In this document: positions 37,321 to 63,820 of the stretch, piece after piece
Layout: every line of letters starts with the position of its first letter
Position numbering within the stretch: position 1 is the stretch's first letter
NCBI GenBank assembly: GCA_964658305.1
Contig: OZ210885.1
Coordinates: forward strand, 5,766,001 to 5,830,000
Length of the DNA: 64,000 nt
Direction: 5' to 3'
Source: Leptogorgia sarmentosa
Lineage: Eukaryota
Notes under the pieces: model-generated
What the model saw: the letters and a program-made list of their open reading frames with translations, nothing else
What the model was told of the DNA's origin: nothing
Databases searched by the model: none
Program-made: the position numbers and the translations under genes

Positions 37321-37379
37321 TCACATGATTAACATGCATATAGCATAGTCATATAAAAAACATACTTCGAATTCAAATT

Positions 37380-37573
37380 AAACATCTTGTAAACTTAAAA
37401 TATAATATGAGCTGTTAAAAGCAAGACAAAATATTCATGGCGACATTTTGACTCATATTTCAAAGTCATTGTCAAACCTTGACAACAACTTGTCAGTACT
37501 TTGAAATAGAGTCGAAATGTCACCTTGAATATTGTGTCTTGTTTTTAACAGCTCTTGAGTTTACAAGATGTTT
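37380..37573. repeat. Palindromic MITE-like repeat
   Basis: AAACATCTTGTAAACT..GAGCTGTTAAAA.CAAGAC / GTCTTGTTTTTAACAGCTC..AGTTTACAAGATGTTT. Confidence 0.7.
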
Positions 37574-38079
37574 ATTTTTGGACTATGTTTTCTCTTAATG
37601 TATATTTTGGTGGAAAAGGTTTTTACTTAGCATAATCGTGACAGAGAACATTGTTATGTTAATCGTAGATGTCTACCAAGGATTAGATATAGCTACGACG
37701 AAAGATTAGACAGTTTAAGACTAAAAATATTTATTCCAAATTTAAAGCCAAGGGGGGTAACAAGACGCTAAAAAAAGTGTATGGATAACAAACACATTGG
37801 CCTTCATCTTTAGCTAGTGCGAAATATGACATCTTAATTATCACATTACACCAGATGTTGCATGTCAAACTTTATTTTACACATTTTGTTACAAATATTC
37901 CAAAATGAATGTGTACATGCGTTTATGACTGTTGGTTATAACATTGGAGTATTTAATTTTGAATTTCTTCAAATATTTTTTTTTCAGGTTAAAGTGAAAA
38001 AAGTTCTACAATTGTTTTCGACAAGGATTCTGTATCAGCGTAATTTTAACTGTTCAGCAGAGGATGATTCGTTATTCCT

Positions 38080-39030: not shown

Positions 39031-39255
39031 GGTTAGAAGTTTTTAATACACAACTTACTGTAACTGAGCATCTGCGTAGAATGACGAAGCCACGAAAGTG
39101 ACAAAGAATTAAGTATTTGCATAATAGTCTTTGTTAAAGCTCGTAAATACTTGGGGCGGGTTTAAAATTGCCCTAAGAAGATTATGAACAGTCTAAACGT
39201 GTCTACATTAATTCAGTTTCTGTTAGCAGATGGCAAATTACTTTTGTAATTACTA

Positions 39256-39604
39256 CCCGTAAACATTGTATGAATTATAACTGTGATATTTCCCAAAACT
39301 CCAATGATCATTGCCAAGAATTTAAACACAACGGACGAAATAAGAAAATAATTTTGTACTTCGGGGAAATGCGACGAGTTATTCGCCATGGTTAGAAGTT
39401 TTTAATACACAACTTACTGTAACTGAGCATCTGCGTAGAATGACGAAGCCACGAAAGTGACAAAGAATTAAGTATTTGCATAATAGTCTTTGTTAAAGCT
39501 CGTAAATACTTGGGGCGGGTTTAAAATTGCCCTAAGAAGATTGTGAACAGTCTAAACGTGTCTACATTAATTCAGTTTCTGTTAGCAGATGGCAAATTAC
39601 TTTT
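39256..39604 (-). pseudogene. Tandem duplicate of the promoter and first ~45 codons of GPCR paralog 3
   Basis: Near-identical to 38897-39245 at period 359 bp; duplicated ATG at 39389. Confidence 0.88.
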
Positions 39605-41970: not shown

Positions 41971-42176
41971 AAACCCCTGCTGCACGAGCAATTTTTGTGT
42001 GACAATTTGCATGTGAAAAACTGACCATTCTTATTTACCCGTGTAGACGAGCAAAATTGGGAAATTTTTGAGGCAATTGGGGAAATACATTTTTTGAAAA
42101 TCTGGTGTGTCAGCTTTTAGCTATGTGACAAATAAAAATTGCCACATAAAATTTGGTCGTGTAAACGAGGCTTAAC
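41971..42176. mobile_element. Degenerate PIF/Harbinger-like MITE
   Basis: TTAAACCCCTGCTGCACGAGCAA ... TTGGTCGTGTAAACGAGGCTTAA imperfect inverted ends. Confidence 0.45.
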
Positions 42177-42543
42177 TTACAATATGCAATTGTGAAGCCA
42201 GCCCGACAATTTAGTGATGCCGTGCAAATTAAATCTGAGATCATTATCATATTTCATTTCTTTAGAACCTGATTCTTGTGGACACAGAAATATTTGCATA
42301 GCATCATCAAATTGTCACTGCTCAGACTTGCTTATTTGGAAAGAAAGGTTGAAATTGCGAATGTCATGCACCTGCATGTGTGATGTGTTTGAGTACTTAA
42401 CACAGTAAACGTTGGAAAAACGGGAATGAGTGCAGGTTCCGTTTAAGCGATAAATCTGTATCGTCTGTTTATCTTTTTCACCGTTCGTGTATTAAAATTA
42501 TTCTTAACATTTTCAAGGATTCTTTAGAATAAAATATATCACA

Positions 42544-43494
42544 ATGGCAAATAACTCGACATATCAGTTCTCTACAATACCAAGCGAGTTTCTTATTTCG
42601 TCCGTTGTATTCAAATTCTTCGCAATGATTATTGGAGTTTTGGGAAATATCACAATTATAATTCATACGCTTTCTACGAGAAAAGAAAAGACAGCGACAT
42701 CTTACTTGATTAGAAACCTGGCACTGGCAGATCTTCTCGTGTGTTTAACATTTTATCCAATATGGATCGTTGAATTTATACAGACTTTATTAAACATCAA
42801 TAGTGATCAGGACTTGTTTTGTAAGTTAAGTCGCTCCAGCATTAAAGCATTACTGTTCGCTTCAGTAGCCACACTTCTCGCAATTACTGTTGATCGCTGT
42901 ATTTATATTGTAAAACCTCTCAGATATCCGCTGATTGTGACCAAACGACGAGTTTTAGTAGCTATGTCAGGTATTTGGTTGATTGCCTGTTGTGTTTTTG
43001 CTGTTCTAATGGTAAGCATAAGAACATTTAAGGAAACTTTAAGAAATATTTGTTACATTGATGATACCCTGGGTTACTGCAGGGAGACGATTTTTCTCTA
43101 TTTTCCACTGACTTTAATAGTAATTCTGAATGTTTGGATTTTAATTGTTGCGGAGAAACAACGTAAACGCATCTGGGCTGAAACAGCAAACAACAGGAGG
43201 GACGCTAATCGATTTTTTCACGCTCTTAAAGCAGTTAAAACATTTAGTATCGTTGTTGCAGTGCTGACTTTCTGTGTTTTAACACCAACAGTGGTTGGGA
43301 CAATGCTACCTAACATTTCGTCATGTAGTGAATCATGCCAACGGTTGTGGTTCGCAGTTTTTAACTATGAGTTTTATGGAATAAACTCCATTGTGAACGC
43401 TTTCATCTATGGAATGAGACATATCGAATACAGAAAAGCTCCTGGACAGATCCTTCATAGCATACTTCGATGCAAGAAACACACCAACAAATAA
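42544..43494 (+). CDS. Intronless class A GPCR, paralog 4 of DRC cluster (316 aa), inverted relative to the other three
   Basis: Same motifs GN, NLALAD, DRC, FCVLTP, NSIVNAFIY. Confidence 0.93.
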   Translation: MANNSTYQFSTIPSEFLISSVVFKFFAMIIGVLGNITIIIHTLSTRKEKTATSYLIRNLALADLLVCLTFYPIWIVEFIQTLLNINSDQDLFCKLSRSSIKALLFASVATLLAITVDRCIYIVKPLRYPLIVTKRRVLVAMSGIWLIACCVFAVLMVSIRTFKETLRNICYIDDTLGYCRETIFLYFPLTLIVILNVWILIVAEKQRKRIWAETANNRRDANRFFHALKAVKTFSIVVAVLTFCVLTPTVVGTMLPNISSCSESCQRLWFAVFNYEFYGINSIVNAFIYGMRHIEYRKAPGQILHSILRCKKHTNK

Positions 43495-44871: not shown

Positions 44872-44944
44872 GCCTCATTAGCTCAGGGGTTCGAGCACTG
44901 GTCTTGTAAACCAGGGCTTCAGAGTTCAAATCTCTGATGAGGTT
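44872..44944 (+). tRNA. tRNA-Thr(TGT), several substitutions
   Basis: GCCTCAT/ATGAGGT acceptor, CTGGT-CTTGTAA-ACCAG anticodon arm, CAGAG-TTCAAAT-CTCTG T arm. Confidence 0.7.
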
Positions 44945-45101
44945 TTATTTTCTTCGAAAACTTTGAATAACTTGGACGACAAACGCCTAGATTGTATTCC
45001 ATGTGCTGTTCAGTGAGTTAAACTGATGAAATAAAAAAGCTATTGGAAGAGTACTACGTTGCAAAAAAAACATGCTAGAGCTAGGAAGATTTTAGCATGT
45101 C

Positions 45102-45173
45102 GCCTCATTAGCTCAGTGGTTAGAGCACTGGTCTTGTAAACCAGGGTTCAGAGTTCAAATCTCTGATGAGGCT
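45102..45173 (+). tRNA. tRNA-Thr(TGT)
   Basis: Full cloverleaf, 1-nt shorter variable loop, followed by T-run terminator. Confidence 0.85.
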
Positions 45174-45312
45174 TTATTTTCTTTGGAAACTTTGAAGAGC
45201 GTGGAACACAAACGCCCACAGTGTCTTCAATGTGCTGTTCAGTGAGTTAAAAAGTTAAAAGTGATGAAATAAAAACGGTATTAATGAAAGTGTACTACGT
45301 TGAAAAAAACAT

Positions 45313-45350
45313 GTAACCAAGGGTCCAGAGTTCAATTCTCTGTTGAGGCT
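45313..45350 (+). pseudogene. 3' half fragment of tRNA-Thr
   Basis: AGGGTCCAGAGTTCAATTCTCTGTTGAGGCT without 5' half. Confidence 0.75.
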
Positions 45351-45449
45351 TTAATTTCTACGAAAACTGTGAAGAACGTGGAAAACACGAACATATGTGC
45401 TCTTCAATGAGTTAAAACTGATGAAATAAAAAAGGCATTTAAGCAGGTT

Positions 45450-45522
45450 GCCTCTTTAGCTCAGTGGTTAGAGCACTGGTTTTGTAAACCAGGGGTCCAG
45501 AGTTCAATTCTCTGATGAGGCT
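45450..45522 (+). tRNA. tRNA-Thr(TGT), one acceptor-stem mismatch
   Basis: GCCTCTT/ATGAGGC; loop TTTGTAA. Confidence 0.75.
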
Positions 45523-45717
45523 TAATTTTCTTCGAAAACTTTGAGACTTGACTTGAGTAATTCAATCAGACTAAATTGTAAAGTTTTGCAAAAAAAGAAA
45601 ACAAGTGGGTAACCTTCTCTGTTATTTTTATCATTTTGATACATGGCATTAGTGTACGATCGCAAAGCAATATAGTTCTACAGCTAGCTTATCAAAGCAA
45701 CATCACATTACGTAGAC

Positions 45718-45790
45718 GCCTCATTAGCTCAGGGGATAGAGCACTGGTTTCGTAAACCAGGGGTCCAGAGTTCAATTCTCTGACTGGGCT
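45718..45790 (+). tRNA. tRNA-Thr(CGT) variant, probably pseudogene
   Basis: Loop TT-CGT-AA; two acceptor-stem mismatches (3' strand ACTGGGC). Confidence 0.6.
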
Positions 45791-46020
45791 TTGTGAAAAG
45801 TATTCATCGGCTTCGTTATTCGTTACAAGTTGTAACAAATAATGATGTTGATGATTTTATAAGGTATCAAGTTAACTCTCGTCATTGTCTGAAAAGTGTG
45901 ACCTGAAACAAAATTTTTGAAGTGAATTTATTTCATGAAAGACACGTGATAATTCGGGAAATCAAGTTTAATTAACTTCGTAATTGGATTTATATTCTGA
46001 GTTTCAATGCAGAAGAAGTA

Positions 46021-46105
46021 GCCTCATTAGCTCAGGGGTTAGAGCACTGGTCTAGTAAAACAGCTAGGAAACCAGGGGTCCAGAGTTCAATTCTCTGATG
46101 GGGCT
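46021..46105 (+). tRNA. tRNA-Thr(AGT) variant with 12-nt insert 3' of anticodon
   Basis: CTGGT-CT-AGT-A[AAACAGCTAGGA]A-ACCAG; other arms pair normally. Confidence 0.6.
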
Positions 46106-46293
46106 TTGTGAATAAGTATTCATTGTGAATATAAGAATTCATCCATTTCCTTTTTCGTAATTGGTTACAAGGAATGCAGTTAACTGTCCAGATTGTATGA
46201 GAAGTGTGACCTGAAGTGATCATGAGTTTATTTCATGAAAACACGTGATAATATGGTAAATTAGTAATTCTGAGTTTCAATAGGGAAGAAGTT

Positions 46294-46366
46294 GCCTCAT
46301 TAGCTCAGTGGTTAGAGCACTGGTCTTGTAAACCAGAGGTCCAGAGTTCAAATCTCTGATGAGGCT
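46294..46366 (+). tRNA. tRNA-Thr(TGT), intact
   Basis: 73 nt, all stems pair, TTTATTTT downstream. Confidence 0.92.
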
Positions 46367-46500
46367 TTATTTTCTTTGAAGAACGTGGAGGACGGACGAC
46401 CCGGCCGGTGTTAAAAGGGTGTTAAAAGTGATGAAATTAAAACGGTATTGGAAGAGTACTACGTTCGAAAACACATATGCTTGGAAGATTTTGGAGAGGT

Positions 46501-46586
46501 GCCTCATTAGCTCAGTGGTTAGAGGTTAGAGCACTGGTCTTGGTCTTGTAAACCAGAGGTCTAGAGTTCAAATCTCTGATGAGGCT
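46501..46586 (+). pseudogene. tRNA-Thr(TGT) pseudogene with two micro-duplications
   Basis: GGTTAGA and TGGTCT each duplicated in tandem. Confidence 0.8.
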
Positions 46587-46792
46587 GGTCGAATAAGTGT
46601 TCTTCCATTTCCTTCTTAGCAATTTGTTCTTAAAATATTGCAGAAATTAAACATCATGCATCGTGATTGTACGACAAATGTGGCCTCAAACCGTTTTTTT
46701 GAGAAAGCTGATTTCCTGGAAAACGTCTTGATCATACGGGAAATTAATCTCATAGTTACATTTATATTCTGAGTTTTATTCGTAATGAAGTT

Positions 46793-46864
46793 GCCTCACT
46801 AGCTCAGGGGTAGGGAACTGGTCTAGTAAACCAGGAGTCCAGAGTTCAATTCTCTGATGGGGCT
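46793..46864 (+). pseudogene. Degenerate tRNA-Thr(AGT)
   Basis: Loop CT-AGT-AA; D stem and acceptor stem mismatches. Confidence 0.7.
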
Positions 46865-47127
46865 TAAAAGTATCGTTATCAAAAATCGACCTGTTAGTTT
46901 TGTGAATCGGAAATAACTTTGTTGAAAGTGGAACTCAGAGTTCCGCTCACTTGTCATATATTCGTTATTATAATTCAATCAGACTAAATGGTAAATTTTT
47001 ACAAAAAAAGAAAGCAAGTGCATGACATTCTCTGTTATTTTTATCATTTTGATACATGGCATTAGTGTACGATCGCAAGGCAATATAGTTCTACAGCAAG
47101 CTTATCAAAGCAACATCTCGTTGCAAC

Positions 47128-47202
47128 GCCTCATTAGCTCAGGGGTTGGAGCACTGGTCTTGTAAACCAGGGGTGTCCAGAGTTCAAATCTCTGATGGGG
47201 TT
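47128..47202 (+). tRNA. tRNA-Thr(TGT) variant with 2-nt variable-loop insertion, possibly pseudogene
   Basis: GGGGTGTCCAGAG; weakened acceptor stem. Confidence 0.6.
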
Positions 47203-47400
47203 CAAAAATGTCGCCATCAAAAATTGACCTGTTAGTAATTAGATTGCTAAATAATTTTAAAAGTGGAACTCAGAGTCCCGCTCACTTGTAATATTTCGGT
47301 ACTGCAATTCAATCAAAGACTAAGGCCTGATGATCTGAAATAAAAAAGCTATTGAAAGAGGACTACGTTAAAAAAAATGCTAGGAAGATTTAAGCAGGTC

Positions 47401-47473
47401 GCCTCATTAGCTCAGTGGTTAGAGCACTGGTCTTGTAAACCAGGGGTACAGAGTTCAATTCTCTGATGGGGCT
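47401..47473 (+). tRNA. tRNA-Thr(TGT)
   Basis: 73 nt cloverleaf, GCCTCAT/ATGGGGC. Confidence 0.87.
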
Positions 47474-47729
47474 CAAAAGTATCGTTATGAGAATAGTGAA
47501 TAATTTTTAGAGTGTAACTCAGAGTTTCTCTTACTTGTAATATATTCGTTATTAATTGATAATAATTCAATAAAAAACTAAATGGTAACGTTTTACAATT
47601 AAAGAAAACAAAACAAGTGCATATTCTTCTCTTTTGATTTTACCATTTTGAAACATGGCATTAGTGCAGGATGGGAAAATAACATAATTCTACATGATGC
47701 TTTTAGGAGCAAAATCACATTGCATAGAC

Positions 47730-47814
47730 GCCTCATTAGCTCAGGGGTTAGAGCACTGGTCTAGTAAATTGTCTAGTAAACCAGGGGTCCAGAGTTCAAA
47801 TCTCTGATGAGGCT
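47730..47814 (+). tRNA. tRNA-Thr(AGT) variant with 12-nt insert 3' of anticodon
   Basis: CTGGT-CT-AGT-A[AATTGTCTAGTA]A-ACCAG; perfect acceptor stem; T-run downstream. Confidence 0.62.
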
Positions 47815-48506: not shown

Positions 48507-50366
48507 ATTTGACGTGCAACATCTAGGCTTAGCTTTATGAGTTAACTTAACTTAGAAGAGAATTTAACGAACTGAGATTTTGATGACGTATTAGTTATAA
48601 TTACTCAACCGCGCGAATTATCTTGATGCGTGATTGATGGCAAAACCCAAAGCATACGCACGTGTAAATACAAAGTTTCTATTTACACAATGTAGACGGC
48701 CTGTTTAAACACATCTGGCTTTTCCTCACATTTCGGTCAAACTTTGAAAATATCCGAGATTGTTTATCTTCTCTATCCGCCTAATAGGAACCATAATTGA
48801 CATTCTGCGTAGGTTCGAAAATTTATTATTTATTACTCGGGCTACCGTAGGTAGACCGAGTTTAAAAATGGGCTTCGATTTATCCTTTTTTTCGGTCGCG
48901 ACTTTGCAAAAAACACGCGTGGGCGACACGAAGTCCTTGAACCAATGAAAATCTTCGTTGAATCGTTTCACGCGTGGGTTCATGGTGCATGCCACGCGCA
49001 CTGGCAGTGAGTTCGTCATTTATAAACTTCATGTAGCCCGAGTGAACGCCTGGTAGACGTCTTGTTTTATTTGGATTTTGAAGCAAGAATGTCACTTATC
49101 AGCAACTCTACGTGCGTAATGTTTAGTTTGCCTGCGAAATTTATCTTTAATGTTTACACAATATTATGCGCCTGCGTAACAACTGTTCATAATTTACCAG
49201 GCCAGGCTACTTAGACGATAGTCCAGCATGGGCATTACCCATGTTCTCAATTGAGAAATATCGGGTACTACCCTTCGAGGTCTTTGTTTAACGGGTGTTC
49301 AAACAAAGGTGTATTCCAATGTTATTTGGGTGGGGGGTTAAATTTTTTTGACACACCCTGTAATTGGTTTGAAAGCTTCGAATGTTGTTGTTATATAACT
49401 CATTTATCCATGTTAGTAAATTTTGGTGAAAACTTGTTCAAATTATCGTCAGGTCGGTTGTGTATTTTCGCCAACTTCTACAATACAACAGTACCAAGGT
49501 GAGTAGATTGCATTTATTCAACTCTATTTAGATCAAGAACAAAACAGAAAGCATGAACTTATTAGTTTAATTAACTAAAGAAGAACCACAAGTGTCCTCA
49601 TTTGTAATTTGCAAAAGTTAAAAAAAATCCAGCATAAGTACCATTTGAACAAAAAATACGATTTGAAACGTCATGCGAAAAAATGCATTGTATCCTTACA
49701 CTCTCCAAGGAACGTCCTAAGCTACTAGTTCCCAAAAGAGCCCATTTATAGGCCTGTCAATTGCGCATCAAAACTTCGATATCTCATACCACAAATTCGC
49801 AAGAAAACCGCTTTGTCTTATGTATAAGATCGTCAAATAATACAAAGTATGTGCAGTGTTCAAGTAATACGACCCACTTTCGCTTTTATCGTTTCCCAAA
49901 TGCGTCGTATTCGGGGAATATTCGTTATGTTCTAGCATGAAAAATAAGGAAACGGTAATGGCAAAAAAAAAACTTATACGTTTTTGTGCCGGACTGAAGT
50001 TGTTTTTTATATCCTGGTTATTTGTTTGAAAATGTATGCAATTTCGAAGGCCAGCCATAGCAACAGTAAATCAATTCGCACAAAACGCCTAAAACAATTT
50101 GAACGTTTTGCTCTTTCGCCGTGACGATGATGTTAATGATTGCATGGAAGTTTAACGAAACACCAAGCCGCAATGCTCGATTTAAAAATATTACAAACGC
50201 CAAAGTATAACAGATCCCTTGTTGTCTCAGCTCGCTATTGTTTTGTATTTCTCCAAATCTCCAAGACCTCGAACGCGCTGTACTTTGACGCTTAAATAAA
50301 ATTAAACACAAAACTTTAAATAAAATTTACTAAAAAATAAACTTTAAAACTATCGTGTTGTTTTAG

Positions 50367-50878
50367 AAAACTGAAATTCCATGCCGCCCAGCAGTTGACA
50401 AAGATGAACTCAACAAATACTTTCTCCACTGTCCAGAAGGTTGTGACAGCAGCAGCAGACATTTGATGCAGAAAATACGTCTGATTGTCACAGAGCTTAA
50501 CGTGTCGAAAAGATTTGGAGATCACGTGCTATGGTAATCATATTCATTTGTGTTTCTGGTCAGGTTCTCGCGGAAACAACATTATTGTTCAAGTAGTCAA
50601 CGGAAAAACACACATAACAACGTGAAAAGAGTCAGTCATGCAGGGATTTAACAACGTGAAAAGAGTCGGTAATGCAGGGATTTCGTCAGAGGTAATTGGA
50701 GTCAATTATTGGGTACGCTCCTCTCCATCTGGGAAAGCTAACGACAGCGCTGGGATCAGGTAATCCAAAATTATCTATCGCAGGTGGAGTTCTTACTTTA
50801 ACTGGCGAAGTCTTTAGCCAATATGAACGTGATCGAAAAGAGTTGGAAACCAATAAATTATACCGTATAACTCAATAA
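50367..50878 (+). pseudogene. Cys/His-core family copy A (frameshift, stop, internal duplication)
   Basis: After TTTTAG: KTEIPCRPAVDKDELNKYFLHCPEGCDSSSRHLMQKIRLIVTE, frameshift near 50500, then CRKDLEITCYGNHIHLCFWSGSRGNNIIVQV..*; ~34-nt tandem duplication at 50615-50682. Confidence 0.8.
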
Positions 50879-51244
50879 ACATTTCCTAATCGAGACTACA
50901 AATCACGTACGACTATGTGAAGGGACAGTGCAGTGTAGTATAGACACAAAACCAATAGTGTAAAAACCTTTTGAGTATTTTTTTAGATGATGGGAGTCTT
51001 TTGTATATTTTCTTGCTTCGGTGGCAACTCTTGAAGTTTCTTCCGACTTTGTGTCTGTCCCTCCCCCGGAACAATCCAGAGATGCTTTGCGGGTTGTTTC
51101 GTAATGATGGTTAATTAGATTGACAAATTATATTGAAATCCACGACTAGCTGACAATCTGATAATCAATCAATCATATAAATTGACACTGTTCAATTGAT
51201 AAAAATATTAAAACTAAAAATACTAAAACAATTAGATTACTCGC

Positions 51245-51320
51245 TCTCGATTTCTACGAGATGACAGTTGATTCGGGCTTCGCCCTCATCAACTATCACC
51301 TCATAGAAATCTCGAGCTCG
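51245..51320. repeat. Core of palindromic dispersed repeat (~51226-51337)
   Basis: CTCGATTTCTA.GAG.TGA.AGTTGAT..GGGCTTCGCCC..ATCAACTATCACCTCATAGAAAT..CGAG. Confidence 0.7.
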
Positions 51321-51785
51321 TAATCTCATTGTTAAATAGACAACTCGGCCTCGTTGTCTAATTGTTAAATATCTAATAATTATAATACAACGCTATACTT
51401 CCCCTATTTGCTATAAGTGAAATTTAATCATGTAAGAAATGGCTTTTCTGCATTCTGAATGGTTAACTGAGCAATAGTTACTGCCTGGACTAGATCAAGC
51501 AGTAGCCATTGCTCTTTTCAACATGGCTGCTAAAATTTACTGATTTTTACTTTATCGCCAATGAAATTATACCAAAACAATTAGTTACTCCAGTCTCGCC
51601 GCTACATGCAGGGTTCGGTAAAGTTTCATCGATAATCACAGAGACTTCAGGAACTAATTGTTAATTAGCCCTTCTTGCTACAATATCATGCATACAATTT
51701 AATTATAGCTCGGCTTCATAAATAGATATAAACATAGATACAGATGACAATGACTTTCTCGGTATTCTTCAAGATGCAAAGAATC

Positions 51786-51810
51786 GAAAGCGAAAGAAAT
51801 GGAAGTTTCG
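51786..51810 (+). promoter_or_regulatory. IRF-like + degenerate kB motif of an orphan family 5' region
   Basis: GAAAGCGAAA followed by GGAAGTTTCG; downstream 51810-52080 aligns with the 5' regions of copies C/D/G but the ATG exon is decayed. Confidence 0.5.
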
Positions 51811-52264
51811 AAGCTTTAGAATGTTCTAACAGCAGGGTATTGATTACTTTAACGCTTCTTCGGTGCTATACCAAAACTACATTATGGTTCGCTTTGTTAT
51901 GCAAAAATCAAAAAGATAACTGAAAAGGAATTCAACGTTTCCAAAACAACAGAGGTTCTAGACACATAGTGTTGATTTGTATCTTTACGTTTACAGTGTA
52001 TTAAGAGAACGGACGACACGATTTATATTGTTTACTTTCCTTTGACTTTTTTATATCTCTAAAAATAATTCTGCTGCATGATGAAAACATTCAAGTCCCT
52101 TAGTTACAAATTCGTCATAATATATCATATATAGGCCTAGTTTGTAGAAGAGGAGTGAATATCAGTGATACCATTAAAATCACAGTGCAACGCGCTACGA
52201 ATTACCAACAAGAGAACACAACGCTTTTTCCAATTCTTGGTATTAAATATTAAATAATAAATAC

Positions 52265-52296
52265 GAAGCGAAAGCAAAACTACGAATGGAATTTCC
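52265..52296 (+). promoter_or_regulatory. IRF-like + kB motif upstream of copy B
   Basis: GAAGCGAAAGCAAAACT then GGAATTTCC (52288-52296). Confidence 0.5.
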
Positions 52297-52567
52297 GGGA
52301 ATTAGGCATGCATGACCAGCATAAGCCTTTTCTGAAATAGCGAGCACGATGCCTTGTGGTCTGGCTTCAGTACAAACAACTCCATGTAAGGCATAATGAA
52401 TAAACAATTTAGTATTGAAGCTAGATCACAATGCATGCAACATGTTCTTTATTGTTCAATTTCGACTGTTGTAGCGTCACAGTCATTTTCCAGCCGCTTT
52501 TCTCATACAGCCAGAAGCAATAATTGGCCAACGATCTCTGTTGTGAATCTCTACGTATTCATGCAGT

Positions 52568-53306
52568 ATGGCTAGTGAACTGGCATTACAGGTAATACAT
52601 TCTTACCTACTTATTTTGTTTGTGAAAAAAAATCGTGAGTGAGAATTTTAGGTATACTCGAGACAATAATTTTATTGTTTCAATATTTTGGTTAAAATGT
52701 TACCATACGTTATAGAAATTTTATCTTGTTTTACAAGTAAAAATAAGTTAGAGACATGTAATCAGATGCTATATAAACATCTAGCTAAATAAATCAGGAA
52801 CGAAGCAAATAAGATAACTCAACAATTGTGTCATCACAGGAACTGGAACAGAACGTACAAGAGATATAATGTGACCAAGAAATACGCCATGAAGATATAA
52901 ACAAATACTGTGATCACTGCACGGATGAAGACTGTGACATCTGTAGACGTTTGATCCAGGAGGCAGGTAAGATCATTGCAAGGTGCCAAGGACCCCAGAA
53001 TCATGTCGAAGGAATTTACAGATTATGTGCTATGGCAAGCATTTCGCACTGCGCTTCTGGTCAGGTTCTCCAGGAAATAAAATTGTGTTCCAGGTGAATG
53101 AAGATGAATTATTCGTAATGGTTGAGGAAAGAACTTGCCCAGAGTCAACCAGATACTTTTTGAGGCAGCAATTGGCACGATTTTCTTCTTGGAGTAGTGC
53201 ACTTCTTTTCCCCGAACAAGTTGCTCCTACTTTCTCACCCGAAGAAACAGCCACTTTCGTCAATGGATTTTACAACTTAAAGACTGGCTGGATATATAGA
53301 CTTTAA
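52568..53306 (+). pseudogene. Cys/His-core family copy B (in-frame stop and frameshift)
   Basis: Exon 52568-52591 MASELALQ|GTAATA; exon from 52840 ELEQNVQEI*CDQEIRHEDINKYCDHCTDEDCDICRRLIQEA (TAA 52867-52869), 8-nt insertion near 52984 shifts frame to PESCRRNLQIMCYGKHFALRFWSG..NGFYNLKTGWIYRL*. Confidence 0.8.
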
Positions 53307-54889
53307 CATGGCTTGAAAACTCGATGTACATATCATATTAAATTTTCATAATCATATCTTACTTGATATAATATTTTACAAAGCATGAATTGGACTTTCT
53401 GAAAATGAAACACAGGTCAAAGCCATTAAATGGAACTTCCTGAATAAACATTTTCAAAATTTCAATGTGTATTAATCGGTACAATCGCGAAATATCGCAC
53501 TGCCTTTTCTAGTTTAAATGACTTATTTAGTTGTTGGCAAGCTGTGAGATTTTACGTCAGGGAAAACCGCATGCTGATCCAGTTAATTCACTGACTGGAA
53601 TCTTTAATTTTCATTGAAATGATACCGTCAGAAAATACATTCGTCGTCTGTTTATAATAAGTTAACGTTACCTTCAGCGTTGGAAATTGAACGCCATTGC
53701 ATTAACTAAGGAAACAAAGAATCGAAACTAAAACTACGAGTCAAAGAACGAGGATAGCGCCCAGAAGCTGACATTATCCGTTTACCCCCAACTACATGGG
53801 CGCGAACGTATGTCAGTTTTCCCTTAAATTATGTCAAAGGAAAAAATCCAAAATTAGGTTTTTATGCCATATACAGCTAGAAAACATTAATTGGCCAACG
53901 ATCTGTTGTGAATCTCTACGCATTGATGCAGTATGGTTAATGAATTGGTAATTCTAATTCTCCTTGTTTCGTTTTCATATTTTGGAGCGACTGTTATAGA
54001 CATAGTTATTTAAGAGAAAAATATAGTAGCTTTCATGCATGCGTGCTCCGAATAGGCATCAATACAACCCTGGGAAAGGGAATATATATTGTTGAATATC
54101 CCGAGAGAATTTATATATCGAGAATTTCTGATGATTTTGCATAGGATGAATAACGACTGTCGCTGTTTTCCGTCATTCTTTCATTCTAATAGTGTGGATT
54201 TTTCCCTTTCATAATCACTGTTTGCAAATTGTTGGAGTTCGAAATCTGTATAATCTCGTGTGAGAGGGCCTCAAATGCTATTGCAACTTTCCTGGACAGT
54301 AGACGTTACGGTACTTTGCCCTTGTTATCTCAAAAGTGAAAATTATTTACACTAAATATAGTTTCTAAGTCATTATTTGAAGGAAATGGACAAAGATATA
54401 ACTAGAGGATTATACTAACACCATGCATTATATTCTATTCCTACCAAGTACGATTGTTGTCGAACATGCAGAATATATTGCATGTATTGTTTCAGTTTTA
54501 TGTATTGGTATTGCTATATATTTGATATAGCGAGATGACTACATGCTGGTCTAGGATATTGTTATTCTGCCACATTGGCTTTATCAAATACCACGTATGC
54601 ATCAAAACTATGTAAAAGCTATAGCTATATCTAATGAATATAATGTACAGTTGTTGAGTTTCTTAAATTCATTAAAATTCAAGGAGCCAAAACGAAAGGA
54701 ATGGAATTCATGGAGTCTAAAAATGCTCTGACAGCAGGGTATTGATTGCTTCAATGCTTCTTGTGTTCTGTGCAAAAAACGACATTAGTTTGCCTTGTCA
54801 TGCAAAACATCAAAAGCTAGGAAACCGCATTCCAAGGTGTCGAAAACAACCAAGGTCTTCATTTTGACTTGTGTCTTTAAATTTACAGT

Positions 54890-56019
54890 ATGGCAAGCGA
54901 ACAGACAGGAAAGGTAATTTATATTGTTACTTTTTACTTGCTTTCTTATCTGTAAAAATAGTGCTGCTCGTAGGAACGCACTGACATTAGAATGAAATTT
55001 CTCACAATTAAAAACTTCAAAATATGGCCAGTATATAGGTAGCGGAGCTTAGCGGATATAACAACATGCATAAACAAGCAGGAAAAGTCCTACTCGCCAC
55101 CTAAACGATACAATGAGATTCGACGTTTCAAGCGAATGAGCGACGTCGGGAATTAGTGTGGCAAAGTCCTTTGCTCGTAACGTCGAATCTTATTGTATCG
55201 TTTAGGTGAACGGGTAGAAACATGTTCAAGTCATGAAGTTGACATCATAATTATATCACAATAAAGGATAAAGGATATTTAAAGGATAAAGCTATACTTG
55301 AACAACATTTTGTCGACAAGATGTACGAGTAACAATCGTGAATGAATCACGATGGATTAGTGCTGTATATTATATCAGTTGATTAGTCCTGTATATTATA
55401 ATTTATTAAGTATATATGTATATGTACTTACTTGTATAATACATATATATGTGTGGTTCATACATAATTTTAATTGCAGATGTTAAAACATCTGTAATAC
55501 AATTTCTCGAAAGATATATGTAATGCACTTTTGTGCATGTTTTGTTGTTGTTAGGAAAATAAAATTGAAGAAATCGATTGTAATCCAGCAGTAACCAATG
55601 AAGATATAAACAAATGCCTGGATCAGTGCTCGCAAAAATGCGGAAATTGCAAAAGTGTGATGGAAAAAGCGCGATTCACTGTTACAAGACGCAAAGAATC
55701 ATATCGCAAGAATTTGGAGATAACTTGTCTTGGTGATCATATTTCCTTGTGTTTCTTGTCTGGTTCGCGGGAAAATCAGCTTCTAGTTCAAATGGGTAAT
55801 GACGGGCAGGCTCATGTAGAGATAATTCGAGAGCGTGACTGCTGTAAATGCATGTGTGTTTGCCTAAAAAGAATGTTTGATTGCATTAAATGCTGCTTAA
55901 ACCTCATCTGTGAGTGCTTCAAATGGTGCTTTACACGTATGTGTTGCTGCTGTAAATGTTGCAGAGATGAACAGGGTGAAAACGAGCCGTTAGTGAGACA
56001 GACTGAGGGAACTGACTAG
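54890..56019 (+). CDS. Cys/His-core family copy C, 162 aa, cysteine-string tail
   Basis: Exon 54890-54913 MASEQTGK|GTAATT; exon 55555-56019 ENKIEEIDCNPAVTNEDINKCLDQCSQKCGNCKSVMEKAR..EITCLGDHISLCFLSGSR..CCKCMCVC..MCCCCKCC..ENEPLV..*; phase-0 intron. Confidence 0.85.
55095..55212. repeat. Palindromic element in intron of copy C
   Basis: CACCTAAACGATACAATGAGATTCGACGTT / AACGTCGAATCTTATTGTATCGTTTAGGTG. Confidence 0.8.
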
Positions 56020-56949
56020 TTTTCATTTTTCTGTTACTTTTGCTATCAAAAATATAAAAAGTCCGTGTTTTGTATTTCGCAAGTGAATAATAACAATTCA
56101 TCATGCTGACTGCAGGCTCAAACTAACTTCTTATTCTTTGTATTACATTGTATCGAAATATTAAAATCCTCACTTATACCATTAACATTTTCTGTCTGTT
56201 TAGATTAATAGCGAGGGGGTATTTTTCAGTTAATAAGAAAGTATAGGCTATAAAATAAAAAGACAGACCGTTTCAATAAATATATATTCCGGCAAGGACA
56301 GGAATCTATCTAATTTACAGCCGACATTTTCATCTCTCCTGTTCAAATACCAACATGAAATGTAACAAAGTAATCTCAATGTTTTGAAAACTTAAGCAAA
56401 TTGAATGTTTTGATACATTTCAGTAAGGAACATACATGACCATGGATTGGCAATGTATTTTCTTCTGTGTTGTTTTTAGCATACAGTATGTGGAGGATAA
56501 CACGGATTTTAGATGGGCTTTGAAAGCAAACTAAAACCATACCGCACTAACTTATGAGTGAATGCTGGAGGGTAATGCAATTACGCAAAACACAAAAATA
56601 TAGCAAAAAATTTTTTGACAATTATAGTTTTAAAACTTACGAGTTACAAAGAAAGAGCGACAAATTGGAATTTTTCCAGGTAGCTATATAGATTCATTCA
56701 CATAAACCACAACATATTTTACACATATTTTATGAAAATCAAATTATACTGAAAGTATACTAAATTTATCGCGCGAGGTGAATATTCACCTAGAATCATG
56801 AGAGAGGTAAATGATTGTTAGCTAAATATCCTTTTATATAATTTGACACCGGTACTAGTGTTATTAATTTCCCCACCCTAACATCGCTCCACATCGTGCG
56901 ATTCAACAAAAAATTTCTTTGCCCGCAATTTCATCGATGAATGATTTGA

Positions 56950-56979
56950 GAAATCGAAAGAGAAATAAATGGAATTTCC
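56950..56979 (+). promoter_or_regulatory. IRF/ISRE-like + kB composite upstream of copy D
   Basis: GAAATCGAAAGAGAAA (three GAAA at 6-nt period) then GGAATTTCC (56971-56979). Confidence 0.6.
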
Positions 56980-57152
56980 GGAGCTCTAAAAAAGCTTAAC
57001 AGCAGGATATTGATTGCTTGTGTCCTAGCTGTGAAGAAAATAACATTATAGTTTGCCTTGTTATGCAGAAATCAAAAGGAAACTGTAATTTTAGGTTTGG
57101 ACAACAACACTGGTGTTTCAGTTTTCTATATTTTTATCTGTATGTTTACAGT

Positions 57153-58077
57153 ATGGCAAGCAAACAGCCAGAAGAGGTAATTATTATACAATTGCTGATT
57201 TCTTCTAGTTGCTACTCAGAATTGTGTACTCACTTGTTCCCAGTGCAGTGGGAACTTCTAAATGTTGTCGAATCTTTACAATTCACCGCATTAATGATGT
57301 GTCACTCTGAAGGCTGTTACAATTGGTATCATGATGTGTTATATAACTTTGCAGCAATGAATAGCATGAATGCATGAAGCTAACACGAATTTTGAAAAAG
57401 TATTTCTGCATAGATATATATATAGGCCCAACACCGCATGCATTTTGAAACACAACAACGTGAACCAAACTATAGTAAACTATAGCATTCCAGTAAGTGC
57501 GGTTCTTGTTGAAATACCTTTCAGATCCGTAAATTTTCTCTGTGTTTTGTAGGAAAGTGAAACACAACAAATCAATTGTAATCCAGCAGTAACCCATGAA
57601 GATATAAACAAATACATGGACTTCTGCTCTGACAAATGCGAAAATTGCAAACGTGTGATGCAAAAGGCGCGTTCAATTGTAGCAGAAAAAGAAAAATCGC
57701 TCCGTAAAAGCCTCGAGATTACGTGCAGGGGTGAACACATTTCCTTGTGTTTCTGGTCTGGTTCACGGAGTATAAAAGTTGTGGTTCAGATGGGTAGTGA
57801 CGGGAACGCTCACGCAGAGGAAACTGAAAGGATTCGGTGGTGTAAGCGGTGCAAGTCTGACTGCTGTGGATGCTGCAAGTCTGACTGCTGTGGATGCTGC
57901 AAGTCTGACTGCTGTGGATGCTGCAAGTCTGACTGCTGTGGATACTGCAAGTCTGACTGCTGTGGATGCTGCAAATGCAAATGTTGTTGTGGGTGCCTGA
58001 ATGGCATTATGCGTTTTTTAAGCCAGCGAAAGAATACACGAACGAACGAGGGTGGGCAGCTAGTAACATCGGAATAG
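57153..58077 (+). CDS. Cys/His-core family copy D, 182 aa, (CKSDCCGC)n tail
   Basis: Exon 57153-57176 MASKQPEE|GTAATT; exon 57553-58077 ESETQQINCNPAVTHEDINKYMDFCSDKCENCKRVMQKAR..EITCRGEHISLCFWSGSR.. Confidence 0.87.
57850..57974 (+). repeat. Coding 24-bp tandem repeat x5 (TGCAAGTCTGACTGCTGTGGATGC)
   Basis: Five near-perfect copies, one TGC>TAC change. Confidence 0.95.
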
Positions 58078-59066
58078 TTTGGTTAACTTACTACATCACT
58101 CTGGGATAAATAAAACACTTTAAACGAACTTTAACCAGAATTAATAACCTTTACTAGTTGAGGGTTTCTGCTGTCCCTGTATCAACTTCAATATTGCTTT
58201 TAAGAGTGAAAGTATGCACTTACTGTAAATCTGCTCCTATTTTAGAAGTTAGTTATAGGTCTTCAAGATGACAATTTGTAGTCTTAATTTCAAAATTCGT
58301 TGGCTAAGAGCACACGACATAACTTGACTTAGCGCAAAATATATAGCCTAATTGCCCGATGAACTGTTTTTAGTAGCTACTAATTAGATTTAATGAAGCG
58401 ATAGCGAACGAAAAGCTCTTGCAGGAGGGTGCCTTCATTGCTCTGTGTGTTTACATGATTTTCCTTTATGTGCAAATTTAAAGGAGAGAGCGGGAGCTTC
58501 AAAATCAAGTGAAGGTCCTTGACATCCATCTGATGCCAAACATACTTTAAATAAAACGGTACAGTATAGCTAATATCATTTTTAACGTTTGGTGAATGGC
58601 ATGCGAGCAAGTAAGATGTTTTCGCACTGCTTGTTGTACGTTTAAATAACGACAAGCTGCGAAATTCTTCGCGGGTAGCTACATCACGCAAAAATTGTCT
58701 ATACACACGCTACATGTGCATCTATAAATATTCATTATACAAGTAATTAATTATATATTTCCTTTGTAAAAAACATGTAAAAACTTTGCGTGATGTTTAC
58801 GTTGGTGCATGTAGTTATTTTCTACATGTACAACATTCAAGTGAGAATTTAGTATGCGACAGACAATTAGGAGATTTCAAATCAGAGATTACGGTTCAAT
58901 ACTCGCATAGACTGACTAGGTAGGTTCTAAATTTCGGCAGGCGATATTGCATTAGAAGTCGTATATACAATAGCTTTTACGCAGGGAAGAGCCCGAGAAT
59001 GCTCCTAGTTTTTCAAGATGAAATTCGATAGCGATTTCTAATCCGAGCATCAAAATTCAGTGATTC

Positions 59067-59086
59067 GAAAGTGAAAGGAAATTTCG
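59067..59086 (+). promoter_or_regulatory. IRF/ISRE + kB-like composite of a decayed family 5' region upstream of copy E
   Basis: GAAAGTGAAA immediately followed by GGAAATTTCG; downstream aligns with C/D/G 5' regions. Confidence 0.55.
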
Positions 59087-59867
59087 GAGCTTTTCAGAAT
59101 GTTCTGACAGCAGGGCGTTGATTGCTTCATTGATTCTAACAGTTGCATTATTGCAAACTAAGACACGGCTTTCTTTGATGTTCCAAAAAAAACATTTCAA
59201 AAAACAACCAATTAAGGTTTCAGCGTCGATTTGTTTTTTAGGTTTACATTATGGTAAACAAACCTACAGTTTACGATATTGCTGATTTCTTTTAGTCTTA
59301 ATTTAACAAAACATCACAAACAAAGTTATTAACATCATCTTATATGCCCCACTATATATATACCTGCTTCAAATAGAAAGTGCAGAACTTACAGTAATAT
59401 ATCATTATGGTGAATTGCATGCGAGCAAAAAGATAATTTCGTACAGCTTTTTCCAGTTTAAACACAACGACTAATCTTAATTGTCTACACGCTATGAGAT
59501 TTTAGTTGGGAATTGCCACACGCTGATTTAATAATTTGCCGATTGTATCTTTAAATATCGCAATCATGCAATAAAATCGTCGTCAAATGAATGTGATACT
59601 ATTATTATGGCCAAGGTTTGTTCGCTCATAACCAACATTGCTGGGATTAAGAATATGTGCATGATAATCATGTTCTATAGAAGAACTGCGGTTTGTGCGG
59701 CAGCTGTAAATTCTCCCATCAGGTCGGCTAGGACTTGCTTTGCTTTTGTTATGTAAAATAGGAAAAAATCCAAACTAATAACTGATCAGTGACCATTTCG
59801 AAACCATTTCATGTGATGTAGCCAAAAGAAGCAGGTGTTCGGTTTTGTGAATCCCTACATGAACCTT

Positions 59868-60963
59868 ATGGCTGATGGAGAGGTACATAATACATAATAT
59901 ATATAGTGCTGTTTCCTCTTCTTTCTCTATGATATGCTGAATTTAACTGATATATGATAGGTATTTTCATGAATAACATTTCATTTAAGTAAGAATTTCG
60001 GTTACGACACACACAATATAGCTACAGTATAAATTATAATGATTTCAACATTTACCCACTTGCGTGAGAGATGCCTCTCAATTCCGTTTCATACTAGTAA
60101 TATAGATTCTATAGCTGTTAGGATAAATTTCGTGCAGGCGATCCTGAATAAACATTATGCACAGAAATCCAACAACAACATGTACGTTTGTTATGATACA
60201 TATGGTATACATTTTTCAACCGTTGAAGTATCTGAATGGCTGAAAGTATTTGGCATTAATAATCAAATTTAAAAATTAGCCAACGTTTACCATGTTGGTT
60301 ACTTAATTTTGCTCATATGACGACGCTAGATATAGCTACCTTGAATACCTTCAGTTGTCCTTGAAGCACGTAAATCACTAAACTTATGAGTTACCCATAA
60401 AGCATGCAATTGCATGGCATTTAACTTTACACAAACCTTGGAGAAAACCATTGTTGCAGTATTAACCTTCCACACTAATACTGAAATGGTTTAAAATGTT
60501 GCGTTTATAGAGACGCACTGTGGAAGAAATCGGATGTGGTCCAATGATAACCCATCAGAAAATAAACGACTACCGAGAGTATTGCCCAGGAAAATGCGAT
60601 AATTGCAAAAATGTTATGTTAAAGGCGCGTCAAATTGCCAGAGAGATATCAGAATCATGTCGGAAGAGTATGGAGATTACATGCAATGGTGATCATTTTA
60701 CCTTGCGTTTTTTGTGTGGTCTTCGGGGAAACCAAATTCTAGTTAGCAGCAACAACGGAAAAGTAGATGTAACGTTACGTAAACAAACATGGCGAGAGTG
60801 GTTTACACCGGGAGGTATCAGGAATACTATAAAAACAATACAACAGGTAACGTTCTCCATCATATTGGTTTTTGTCATGGCCAGAAATTGCGGATATGTA
60901 AGATTGCGCGTGCGCGAAATTTTTGGTATAAAATGGCGACAGATTCCCTATGTTTTTCTATGA
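59868..60963 (+). CDS. Cys/His-core family copy E, ~155 aa, hydrophobic/basic tail
   Basis: Probable exon 59868-59882 MADGE|GTACAT (in-frame ATG also at 59859); exon 60511-60963 RRTVEEIGCGPMITHQKINDYREYCPGKCDNCKNVMLKAR..EITCNGDHFTLRFLCG..VTFSIILVFVMA..*. Confidence 0.75.
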
Positions 60964-61539
60964 GAAAATTTAATAATTCATAATATATATTTTGACATGT
61001 AAATTATTTTGAATAATTGCTGAAATGAAAATAGTATCTTATAGTAAACAGCAACTATCTGGATAACATAAACTGGTGATAAGTATTAAACCCGCCCTGC
61101 TTTTTTAAAATAAATGCTCAAAGAATTACCTTACTTTGCTATGAAGAAACAGCAAGGGCCAAGGAAGAATCGCTCCATTCATTTTACTCAGACAACAATC
61201 GACGGTTGCCGAAATCATTTATTTTGAACGAGTGATTTCTGCCTATGTTCGGCAATTTAAGTTAAATTGGCAAGTAGTGATCTTCGAGATCACATGACGG
61301 TCCAGGGGCCGGGGTATTAAAGGCTTTTAGACTTCTCAACTTCCCATTGAGAAAATTAATTTTTATTGATATCTTAATTCCTCTTTGGGACATAACAAAA
61401 TACTTAGGATGACAAAATACTTATACCATAATTATATAGTCAGACACGAAATGAATCCCTCCTCCCTCATTCCTCATCCAAGACAGTCCAACAAGTAAAT
61501 CACTTTGTTGAACGCTACTTTTTTTGTTTGTATCTTCAG

Positions 61540-62328
61540 AGCAACAAAGTAAATGATGATCCGGTGCCTCAGGTAATTAATTCTATATTTTTTCCAAAGA
61601 TCGATCAGTGTCAATTGCATGCATATGTAAGAAAAACGTTTTATATATGCATATACTTGGACTTAAAACGTTCTTATACGATTCGTGTGTGAAATGTTTT
61701 CAACATTTTGGGATGTGGTACAACTGGTCTGAAAAAAGGAGTGTATACAGTGGAGGGGGTGGGAGTGGAGGGCGGTTTGAATCTACTAAATGAGATACAT
61801 ATAAAATTTGACTATTGATCGATTGCATTATTACAGGAACGCGAACGTAAAATAGAATATATTCTATGTGATCCAGTGGTACACCATGAAGATCTGAACC
61901 GATACTGTAATTCTTGTTTGGTTGAAGACTGTATAGTTTGCAGACATGTGATGCAAAAGGCACGTCTGATCGTCGCAGGGGCCCCAGAATCATGTCGAAA
62001 GAATTTCGAGATTACATGCTATGGTGAGCATATTTCATTCCGCTTCTGCTCTGGTTCTCGGGGAAATAAAATTGCCGTCTTAGTGTGTGAAGGTACAATA
62101 CATGTTGTTATAGAGGAAAGAACTTGGAAACAGGCGATGATAGACTTTTTTAAGCGTCAATGGCAACAATTTTTGGGTATTAAACTCATAGTTGCTCTGA
62201 GAGCAGCACTTACTGACCGTGAAGCAGCTGTCTCTTATCTGCCACTCGAACAAAATGCCTGTTTGGTCAGTGGATTTCACAACTTAAGGACAGGAAGCAT
62301 ATACACCTTAACTTTGCCTGAAAACTAA
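61540..62328 (+). CDS. Cys/His-core family copy F (start codon not located)
   Basis: Exon 61540-61572 SNKVNDDPVPQ|GTAATT; exon 61837-62328 ERERKIEYILCDPVVHHEDLNRYCNSCLVEDCIVCRHVMQKAR..EITCYGEHISFRFCSGSRGNKI..SGFHNLRTGSIYTL..*; closest to copy B. Confidence 0.75.
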
Positions 62329-63112
62329 TTCAATTTTCTTATCATATCTTATTAAATGTTCATACAATATTAACTTTCTTTAATGAAGCCATTGAAAGAA
62401 AGCTATGCTTTTGTCGTAGCTATATGTCGTCAAATGTCTATACTATAGCTATATATATTCTTTGCACGTGCAATATGTCTAGAGTTTCTGTATATATATA
62501 CATATATTGGTTTGCGAAATTCAAAAGTCAAAATACTAGTGCTCAATGACATATAGACAGAGCAAAATGTATAAACATATATTAATGAATAATAACGTCA
62601 ATGAAAAGAAACACATCACTTGTAATATCAATTTTGGTTGTAATTGAACACTAACTCACACCAAGATACCTAACAACTGAATATTGTTAGTTAAAATAGA
62701 AAAATACAGTGCCAAGTGTAAAGTGTCTTATATGTGAAATAGTACCCAGGCAGCTAGCGTGTGTAAAATCACAATTATATAATATATATTATATATATTT
62801 ACTACTATCTATCTACATCTATATATACAAAACGTATAACAATGTGCCCTCAATAATTTGTTTGGCAATGTAAAACGTACGAGTAATAAACTACGAGTTG
62901 CAAAGAAAGAGTGACAAATGGCAATTTCTAATCATGTTCATTCACACTTCATCATCATAAACAACAATGAACGTTTCTTCAACGTTTTAAATTTGGCTGT
63001 TTATATCGTGAATGTTCACGATTTCTCAAATTTAATACACTTTCTTCGCCATTCAGCCATCTAAGGCTTGTTGTTTTGATGAATTTACGATTATTTTAAA
63101 CATCGCGTATTT

Positions 63113-63132
63113 ACAAAGGAAATGGAATTTCC
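63113..63132 (+). promoter_or_regulatory. kB motif upstream of copy G (IRF part eroded)
   Basis: ACAAAGGAAAT-GGAATTTCC (63124-63132), same context as copy D. Confidence 0.5.
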
Positions 63133-63306
63133 GGAGCTCTAAAAAAGCTTAACAGCAGGGTACTGATAGCTTGTGCCCTGTGAAGAAAATGAAATTATAG
63201 TTTGCCTTGTTATGCAGAAATCAAAAGGAAACTGTAATTTAAGGTTTGGACAACAACACTGGTGGTACGTTTCAGTTTTCTATATTTTTATCTGTATCTT
63301 TACAGT

Positions 63307-63820
63307 ATGGCAAGCAAACAGTCAGAAGAGGTAATTATTATACAACTGCTGATTGAATTATTGTTGCTGTCGCTGTGTTCAAGTAGCTATATAAGTGCAT
63401 GTGGTTGTCGTCAAAACCACCACTTTATTTTATAGCCGAAAACTTTCTTTCATGTTTTGTTGTCAGGAAAGTGAAACACAACAAATCAATTGTAATCCAG
63501 CAGTAACCCATGAAGATATAAACAAATACGCGGACTTCTGCTCCGACAAATGCGAAAATTGCAAACGTGTGATGCAAAAGGCGCGTTTAACTGTAGCAGA
63601 AGCAAAAAAATCGCTCCGTAAAAGCCTCGAGATTACGTGCAGGGGTGAACACATTTCCTTGTGTTTCTGGTCTGGTTCACGCAGTAAAAAACTTGTGGTT
63701 CAGATGGATAGTGACGGGAACGCTCTTGTGGAGAAGAAAAAAAAGATCGGTCGCCGAAGACGGCCTCAATTAACAATAAATTGGCGAAAAAACAGACGAA
63801 AGCGCCATATTCGCCAATGA
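63307..63820 (+). CDS. Cys/His-core family copy G, 125 aa, polybasic tail
   Basis: Exon 63307-63330 MASKQSEE|GTAATT; exon 63467-63820 near-identical core to copy D, tail EKKKKIGRRRRPQLTINWRKNRRKRHIRQ*. Confidence 0.85.

Follow-up and report, generated by a model that had tools for sequence, protein, structure and literature searches.

The window analysed here is a stretch of 64,000 nucleotides (nt) from Leptogorgia sarmentosa (assembly GCA_964658305.1, contig OZ210885.1, positions 5,766,001 to 5,830,000 of the forward strand), and it carries a tandem array of exons that each encode one Cys/His-type module of about 90 amino acids (aa). A module profile was built from 31 family members and searched against the complete 64 kb window in six-frame translation. 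Matches were found at exactly seven places, all on the + strand, from 50370 to 63784 (32-162 bits), and the best score elsewhere in the window was only 3.0 bits. The copies are lettered A to G in order of position, and the five open cores are 42-48% identical to that of F. The array comprises six spliced genes from seven module copies, of which A and B are broken. An earlier note on this DNA had described seven same-strand genes; the seven module exons and their common strand were confirmed, and the number of genes drops to six, E and F being one. The parts of the array are listed below.

49937-49954, + strand: putative first coding exon of gene A, with 6 codons and a phase-0 GT donor, proposed from sequence only
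50367-50625, + strand: module exon A, a pseudogene that is frameshifted near 50500 and has lost one Cys invariant elsewhere, found by profile and matched by DNA-like contigs with 0 differences
51786-52021, + strand: orphan type-1 upstream block (GAAANNGAAA and GGAAGTTTC) with a dead first exon lacking ATG and donor
52264-52296, + strand: IRF-like half-sites and GGAATTTCC, upstream of gene B
52402-52591, + strand: first exon of gene B, type 2 (coding 52568-52591), bridged to its module exon by contig 17 of run X4
52840-53520, + strand: module exon B, a pseudogene that is still spliced, with TAA at 52867 and its frame shifted near 52985, found by profile and contigs
53933-53947, + strand: orphan first exon of type 2, with 5 codons and a phase-0 donor, possibly an alternative first exon of C; no contig
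54688-54913, + strand: upstream block (imperfect) and first exon of gene C (coding 54890-54913)
55555-56019, + strand: module exon of gene C with a Cys-rich amphipathic tail (17 Cys); protein of 162 aa
56950-57176, + strand: upstream block (GAAANNGAAA twice and GGAATTTCC) and first exon of gene D (coding 57153-57176)
57553-58077, + strand: module exon of gene D with a Cys-string tail (24-bp repeat, 5.2 copies); protein of 182 aa
59067-59085, + strand: type-1 upstream block (GAAAGTGAAA and GGAAATTTC), some 800 nt ahead of the first exon of E-F, the donor of its own first exon lost
59868-59882, + strand: predicted exon 1 of gene E-F (5 codons); homologous exon and donor at the end of metagenome locus L002
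60511-60846, + strand: exon 2 of gene E-F, module E, found by profile and contigs
61540-61572, + strand: exon 3 of gene E-F, a 33-nt phase-0/0 linker exon deduced from contig depth sums
61837-62328, + strand: exon 4 of gene E-F, module F and tail; whole protein of 291 aa
63124-63330, + strand: upstream GGAATTTCC (IRF-like pair lost) and first exon of gene G (coding 63307-63330)
63467-63820, + strand: module exon of gene G with a polybasic tail, a recent duplicate of D; protein of 125 aa

Genes C, D and G share one plan: the first exon has 8 codons, a phase-0 GT..AG intron follows, and the second exon is open. A tiny first coding exon and a phase-0 intron had been proposed in the earlier note for all copies; F has no ATG exon of its own. 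The candidate first exon of A falls outside the span that the note had assigned to the family. Both pseudogenes recognised in that note carry lesions: in A, Ser replaces the third Cys of the C-x3-C-x2-C group, and in B, which is still spliced, the TAA is codon 18 and an 8-nt insertion near 52985, read from the sequence, shifts the frame. Contigs of the deep DNA-like runs X1 and X3, which may derive from the source sample, showed 0 differences from the window in 16/16 listed pieces and spanned the lesions of A and B; the array and its lesions are therefore not assembly errors. Both B lesions are also held in run X4, with 0 differences over 52836-53520.

Runs X4 and X5 were treated as RNA solely because their contigs skip GT..AG introns; X4 belongs to a second study. 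Spliced transcripts, whose absence from every copy the earlier note had named as a ground for rejection, are present in the form of these intron-skipping contigs. For B, splicing was read directly: X4 contig 17 joins 52587 to 52836, and four shared letters shift the joint onto the GT..AG intron 52592-52839. For C, D and E-F, splicing was established from depth sums. At their 5' ends the contigs listed for C and D extend by a further 82-95 letters, lengths that agree with the depth sums of the first-exon bins (3.51 vs 3.51, 18.35 vs 18.4, 11.0 vs 10.9). X4 contig 22 carries 74 letters upstream of F, and of four placements considered, only the end of E plus the 33-nt exon 61540-61572 matched all three bin depths (2.65, 0.50, 1.31). 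E and F are thus joined in one open 291-aa two-module gene with three GT..AG introns, the E-linker-F junction being deduced from depth sums and not from a printed contig joint. The first exon of E-F and the orphan exon at 53.9 kb have no contig cover, which is not evidence of silence. One X4 contig (57581-57879 vs 63467-63725) follows G at 8/8 sites of D/G difference within its 5' half and follows D at the 4 later sites; G-like sequence is present in X4, as an assembly chimera or as a converted allele (gene conversion).

Conservation within the module was counted across 35 domains where covered, with residues numbered after the G exon. Invariant positions were C9 (14/14), C25 (15/15), C29 and C32 (16/16 each), C58 and H62 (35/35 each), and G70; H15 and N19 (14/15 each) and R51 and R72 (34/35 each) were near-invariant, followed by S69 (33/35), R40 (30/33) and K38 (27/33). 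The counts for the first four Cys rest on 14-16 domains because about 20 outside sequences begin at a Met after C32. The EDINKY stretch of the consensus in the earlier note proved not to be invariant (QKINDY in E, EDLNRY in F, EDINKC in C), and that consensus had overlooked the His of V-x-H-x2-I-N, kept in 14/15 domains. Pairwise ratios of nonsynonymous to synonymous substitution rates (dN/dS), obtained by simple counting with dS near saturation for distant pairs, were 0.30-0.78 and below 1 in 10/10 pairs; the module is under purifying selection.

Structure prediction with AlphaFold2 (32 rows) gave the 92-aa core a predicted local distance difference test (pLDDT) score of 92.4 and a predicted template modelling (pTM) score of 0.82, with 3/5 models above 91. 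The predicted core consists of strand 5-8, helix 15-19, a Cys loop, helix 30-45, a short helix and strands 54-59, 64-68, 74-80 and 86-90, a compact alpha+beta fold of strand, short helix, Cys loop, long helix and four-strand meander. The N-terminus is not hydrophobic (maximum Kyte-Doolittle 12-mer -0.19 to 0.57), and none of 4/4 gene models has a signal-like N-terminus, so that the absence of a signal peptide and the cytosolic location given in the earlier note stand as far as tested; disulfides are on this ground unlikely. Seven Cys/His positions are conserved, five invariant Cys and two invariant or near-invariant His, where at least four are expected of a zinc-binding domain. Given the odd number of invariant Cys, the two His and the lack of a signal-like N-terminus, zinc binding is the simplest reading of the pattern, and on sequence grounds the module probably binds zinc.

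Tails vary freely across the family, with Cys strings in C, D, P0008 and L002 and polybasic stretches in G and P0019. At least 6 Cys are found in 4/28 tails, most tails having 0-2, and the whole proteins contain 24 Cys in C and 32 in D. Tail repeats expanded separately (an 8-aa unit in D, an 11-aa unit in L002). Amphipathic tails numbered 7/28 at p<0.05 (uncorrected p-values), and a 19-residue hydropathy of at least 1.6 was reached in 5/28. Membrane tethering is suggested for a subset of tails only, because most fail these tests.

Relatives were sought with a word-index search, in which 28/107 candidates of similar length were relatives, two of these 28 being E of the window and a near-copy of F; the search for longer proteins gave 1 relative (P0034) among 7,992 and 4,024 candidates. 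P0034, from Paramuricea clavata, has three tandem modules plus a tail and fits one exon per module. When 20 relatives were looked up, 3 carried an organism name, in every case P. clavata, and no Nematostella-named protein was among the relatives from these searches; the lineage restriction put forward in the earlier note thus stands as far as tested. The three (CAB4019449.1, CAB4004425.1 and CAB4044665.1, 48-52% module identity) have the same Cys/His pattern, CAB4004425.1 carrying three tandem modules, and are annotated as 'hypothetical'; they are true homologues in the same unnamed family and offer no explanation of function.

A metagenome scan yielded 2 loci, L002 and L003, out of 383 candidates. 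The gene at L002 resembles C and is laid out in two exons in the same way. At L003, positions 300-720 hold a family copy in which the phase-0 intron is precisely missing and there is no ATG, with the upstream block kept; this is either intron loss or a retrocopy, and a retrocopy would place the block inside the 5' untranslated region. A metagenome scan with query A2 (0/42 candidates) and a scan of viral contigs (0/14 candidates) gave nothing. The bacterial locus L001 was rejected as a chance match (9 bits, on the strand opposite a long open reading frame (ORF) that resembles a phage baseplate gene). In a tree of 41 domains, which excluded four duplicates and anything shorter than 40 aa and has 12/38 weak inner branches, one clade (support 99/96) unites C, D, G, L002 and L003 with three others. 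Because C, D and G share this clade with outside sequences, the subfamilies are older than the duplications in this genome, and the rapid birth-and-death read from the array in the earlier note is only half right.

No Pfam or NCBIfam family fitted the members consistently in library profile scans, and a PDB sequence search gave no significant match; with no confident domain or transposon match in profile or sequence searches, such a match being the other ground for rejection named in the earlier note, the core remains unrecognised, as first described, as far as tested. Foldseek returned 0 matches at E<=0.001 against PDB for both models (163-aa and core) and 0 against BFVD for the 163-aa model. 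VIA-align against 48,161 chains gave RlmCD as its best match to the 163-aa model (Z 5.4, root-mean-square deviation (rmsd) 4.3, 107 residues aligned); for the core, 0 matches reached Z>=5, the best (Z 3.6, rmsd 2.7, 62 aligned) lay below the tool's stated typical best of 7-8, and release-factor N domains stood at ranks 1, 3 and 12. The best ESM Atlas score was 0.78 for the core, and P0034 was without a usable match. Empty fold searches of this kind establish neither a new fold nor the exclusion of any family. A literature search with two P. clavata accessions and UniProt ids returned 0 papers; no paper describing the family was found in the literature search, supplementary gene lists lying outside its scope, and the retrieved portions of PMC13044578, PMC12594431 and PMC13319465 held nothing specific to it. 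We consider it very probable that this is a real, undescribed and expressed family.

Several candidates were rejected. The radical-SAM cluster motif has a fixed C-x3-C-x-aromatic-C spacing within a TIM-barrel enzyme; here the CxxxCxxC spacing varies (x4 in F, shorter in P0011), there is no aromatic residue, and the domain is about 90 aa. Transposon or viral proteins gave no Pfam match, and the best PHROGs match (E 0.003) was repeat-driven. Pfam GOLD_PATL1_C on P0034 (27.3 bits vs a cut-off of 34.5) was a three-repeat effect, and PADLOC MTase_II, YacG and UL11 gave weak, inconsistent matches.

Upstream of the first exons, five window copies and two outside copies (L002, L003) of the type-1 region align and share GAAA-like half-sites, a variable two-base spacer and, within about 10 nt, GGAA(T)TTCC-like letters. 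A search for the strict composite returned 3 copies, none of them outside the cluster, where 100 shuffles gave a mean of 0.03. GGAATTTCC has 4 sites in the window, of which 3 fall in the cluster, against an expectation of 0.69, and a relaxed form of the composite also precedes the first exon in L002 and L003. The exact GAAANNGAAA core is found at 51786, 56950/56956, 59067 and L002:1885, is imperfect at B, C and L003, and is lost at G. The order of the block resembles that of the IRF and NF-kB sites of the mammalian interferon-beta enhancer. In B and D, about 110 nt separate the block from the downstream 5' ends of the contigs, though contigs of this kind cannot reveal the true start. The GAAANNGAAA core agrees with the interferon-stimulated response element (ISRE) consensus as given in PMC7590177, minus the trailing CT. 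Just downstream of the IRF/kB-like sites, the stretch 56990-57019 and its paralogues form the best-conserved upstream stretch, which matches no recognised motif and may be a core promoter or splice donor. First-exon types 1 and 2 stand paired before a module exon at 51.7-52.6 kb, 53.8-54.9 kb and 59.0-59.9 kb and at L002 1850-2845, possibly as alternative promoters.

Taken as a whole, these features could describe a zinc-binding, one-exon Cys/His module that serves as a cytosolic binding unit in inducible innate immunity of an octocoral host, a chain that we put forward tentatively, at a little under even chances. Pathogen sensing would activate NF-kB and perhaps IRF, and the upstream block resembling IRF and kB elements would drive induction of the genes. 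In the protein, C9, H15, C25, C29, C32, C58 and H62 would hold one or two zinc ions, K38, R40, R51 and S69-G70-x-R72 would form a conserved basic surface for a polyanionic ligand such as RNA, a nucleotide or a lipid head group, and Cys-string, amphipathic or basic tails would set the membrane or compartment. Tandem modules, of which there are one to three per protein (two in E-F, three in P0034), may add avidity. That the family is induced in immunity at all we regard as evenly balanced, the defence role being drawn from the IRF/kB-like block, gene turnover and analogy. In Nematostella, 40/98 NF-kB-dependent genes induced by cyclic GMP-AMP (cGAMP) are uncharacterised, some of them cnidarian-specific (PMC8713801), and this is the class of gene proposed for the coral family. 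Rather unlikely, by our estimate, is the boldest form of this immune reading, in which an octocoral-born, undescribed zinc-dependent fold, used as a stackable one-exon unit with swappable membrane tails under an IRF plus NF-kB composite enhancer, would furnish a coral-specific class of restriction factors akin to the products of interferon-stimulated genes, in an animal that has no interferons.

Several observations weigh against the immune reading. The composite pattern was defined after the sequence had been viewed, its copies are paralogous with about one or two independent origins, and the relaxed pattern is not confined to the cluster, with 3 hits in the other 50 kb compared with 4 within the cluster's 14 kb. 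The adjoining block 56990-57019 is better conserved (0.77-0.87) than the IRF/kB block (0.61-0.69); G has lost the IRF-like pair and C has an imperfect block, the ISRE core is not followed by its trailing CT, and the first G of the canonical site is missing from the kB-like sites. In the protein, 21/28 tails fail the amphipathy test, those of F, D and G included, several outside tails may be intron read-through, the conservation counts are partly circular, the relatives having been found with the same motif, and dN/dS is above 1 in no pair. The neighbouring Sushi gene, GPCRs (G-protein-coupled receptors) and tRNA array say nothing on module function. Single IRF knockdowns also left cGAMP induction unblunted in Nematostella (PMC8713801).

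The same zinc-type module and tails could instead belong to non-immune membrane adaptors of particular cell types or stress states (e.g. gland, nematocyte or sclerite-forming cells), with the upstream block a copied core promoter. We judge this somewhat unlikely, although the subfamilies are common to several genomes, purifying selection alone was detected, the best-conserved upstream stretch differs from the IRF/kB block, and the spliced contigs come from two studies without a recorded challenge; over the seven aligned copies the GAAA half-sites are kept while the two spacer bases vary (GC, GA, GT, AC), and two pseudogenes and three orphan first exons amount to a turnover typical of defence families. 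A highly diverged member of a known family, such as a BIR-like NuBaID/zf-C3HC finger, an RZ finger, a His-Me nuclease or a domesticated mobile-element domain, would explain P0007, which scored 20.6 bits on NuBaID_C (0.4 bit over the cut-off of 20.2) and E 0.044 on zf-C3HC. A CxxC followed by H-x3-C-aromatic is common to these fingers and the coral module, whose H-x3-C-F-W resembles the H-x3-C-P-W of the fingers. NuBaID_C was, however, matched by 1/31 members and by 0/5 window proteins; the last Cys needed for the ligand set (CxxC...H-x3-C), Cys66, is present in 24/34 domains and missing from E and F, the coral CxxC is predicted at a helix start and not in a knuckle, and a BIR-like fold was not among the matches listed in the fold searches. 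For a mobile-element domain, the intron-exon structure and the lack of a phage or virus profile match speak against it, and this whole group of explanations appears improbable.

A thiol-redox or metal-buffering protein, with a redox-active CxxC at the start of the long helix and Cys-rich tails binding metal in the manner of metallothionein, seems quite improbable. In the model, C29-x2-C32 does sit at the N-terminal end of helix 30-45, as in thioredoxin-fold oxidoreductases, the Cys totals of C and D are high, and 2/32 members gave weak thioredoxin profile matches (best E 0.0064); the best score was 14.1 bits vs a cut-off of 140, and a thioredoxin fold was not among the matches listed in the fold searches. 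This explanation would also leave five more invariant or near-invariant Cys/His unaccounted for, most tails are poor in Cys, and tail Cys alternate with Phe/Trp/Leu, closer to lipidated helices.

The window as a whole has the character of animal DNA, with a GC content of 30-39%, introns, Sushi exons and intronless rhodopsin GPCRs. At 200-14500, mostly on the - strand, there are many Sushi-domain exons and two lectin-like exons, which we take to be FTP-type, probably parts of one multi-exon gene; one Sushi-like exon is on the + strand at 211-465. Rhodopsin-type GPCR ORFs without introns, four of them paralogues (77-83% DNA identity; three on the - strand, one on the +) and one a more distant GPCR, lie at 31320-43491 and 23920-24918. 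A tandem array at 44872-47814 received 11 ARAGORN tRNA-Thr calls of differing anticodon (6 tgt, 3 agt, 1 cgt, 1 ggt); small insertions occur in several, and the array is likely a mix of genes and pseudogenes.

Expanded, lineage-restricted immune families are already known, and the coral module is without a name in the libraries searched. Interferon-stimulated proteins of the RTP4/zf-3CxxC and IFITM/CYSTM types are one analogue, being small, Cys-liganded or Cys-rich, C-terminally membrane-anchored and under IRF control; the coral module differs in that it has one CxxC, not three, and none of 31 members gave a Pfam match to these families at E 0.1 or better. The pals genes of C. elegans are likewise expanded, lineage-restricted and immune-linked with biochemical function unknown, and number 39 (PMC6347328). 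They are a functional analogue, with no sequence link found, and their immune roles have been demonstrated, unlike the proposed role of the coral module. The family would bring animal biology a small domain that folds well and has no name, and octocoral immunity a concrete effector family open to testing; the upstream block would offer a reporter test of joint IRF/NF-kB action in cnidarians, a question left open by the single Nematostella knockdowns. Should the immune reading fail, a new domain family is still defined by the corrected gene models, one that has so far been annotated only as 'hypothetical'.

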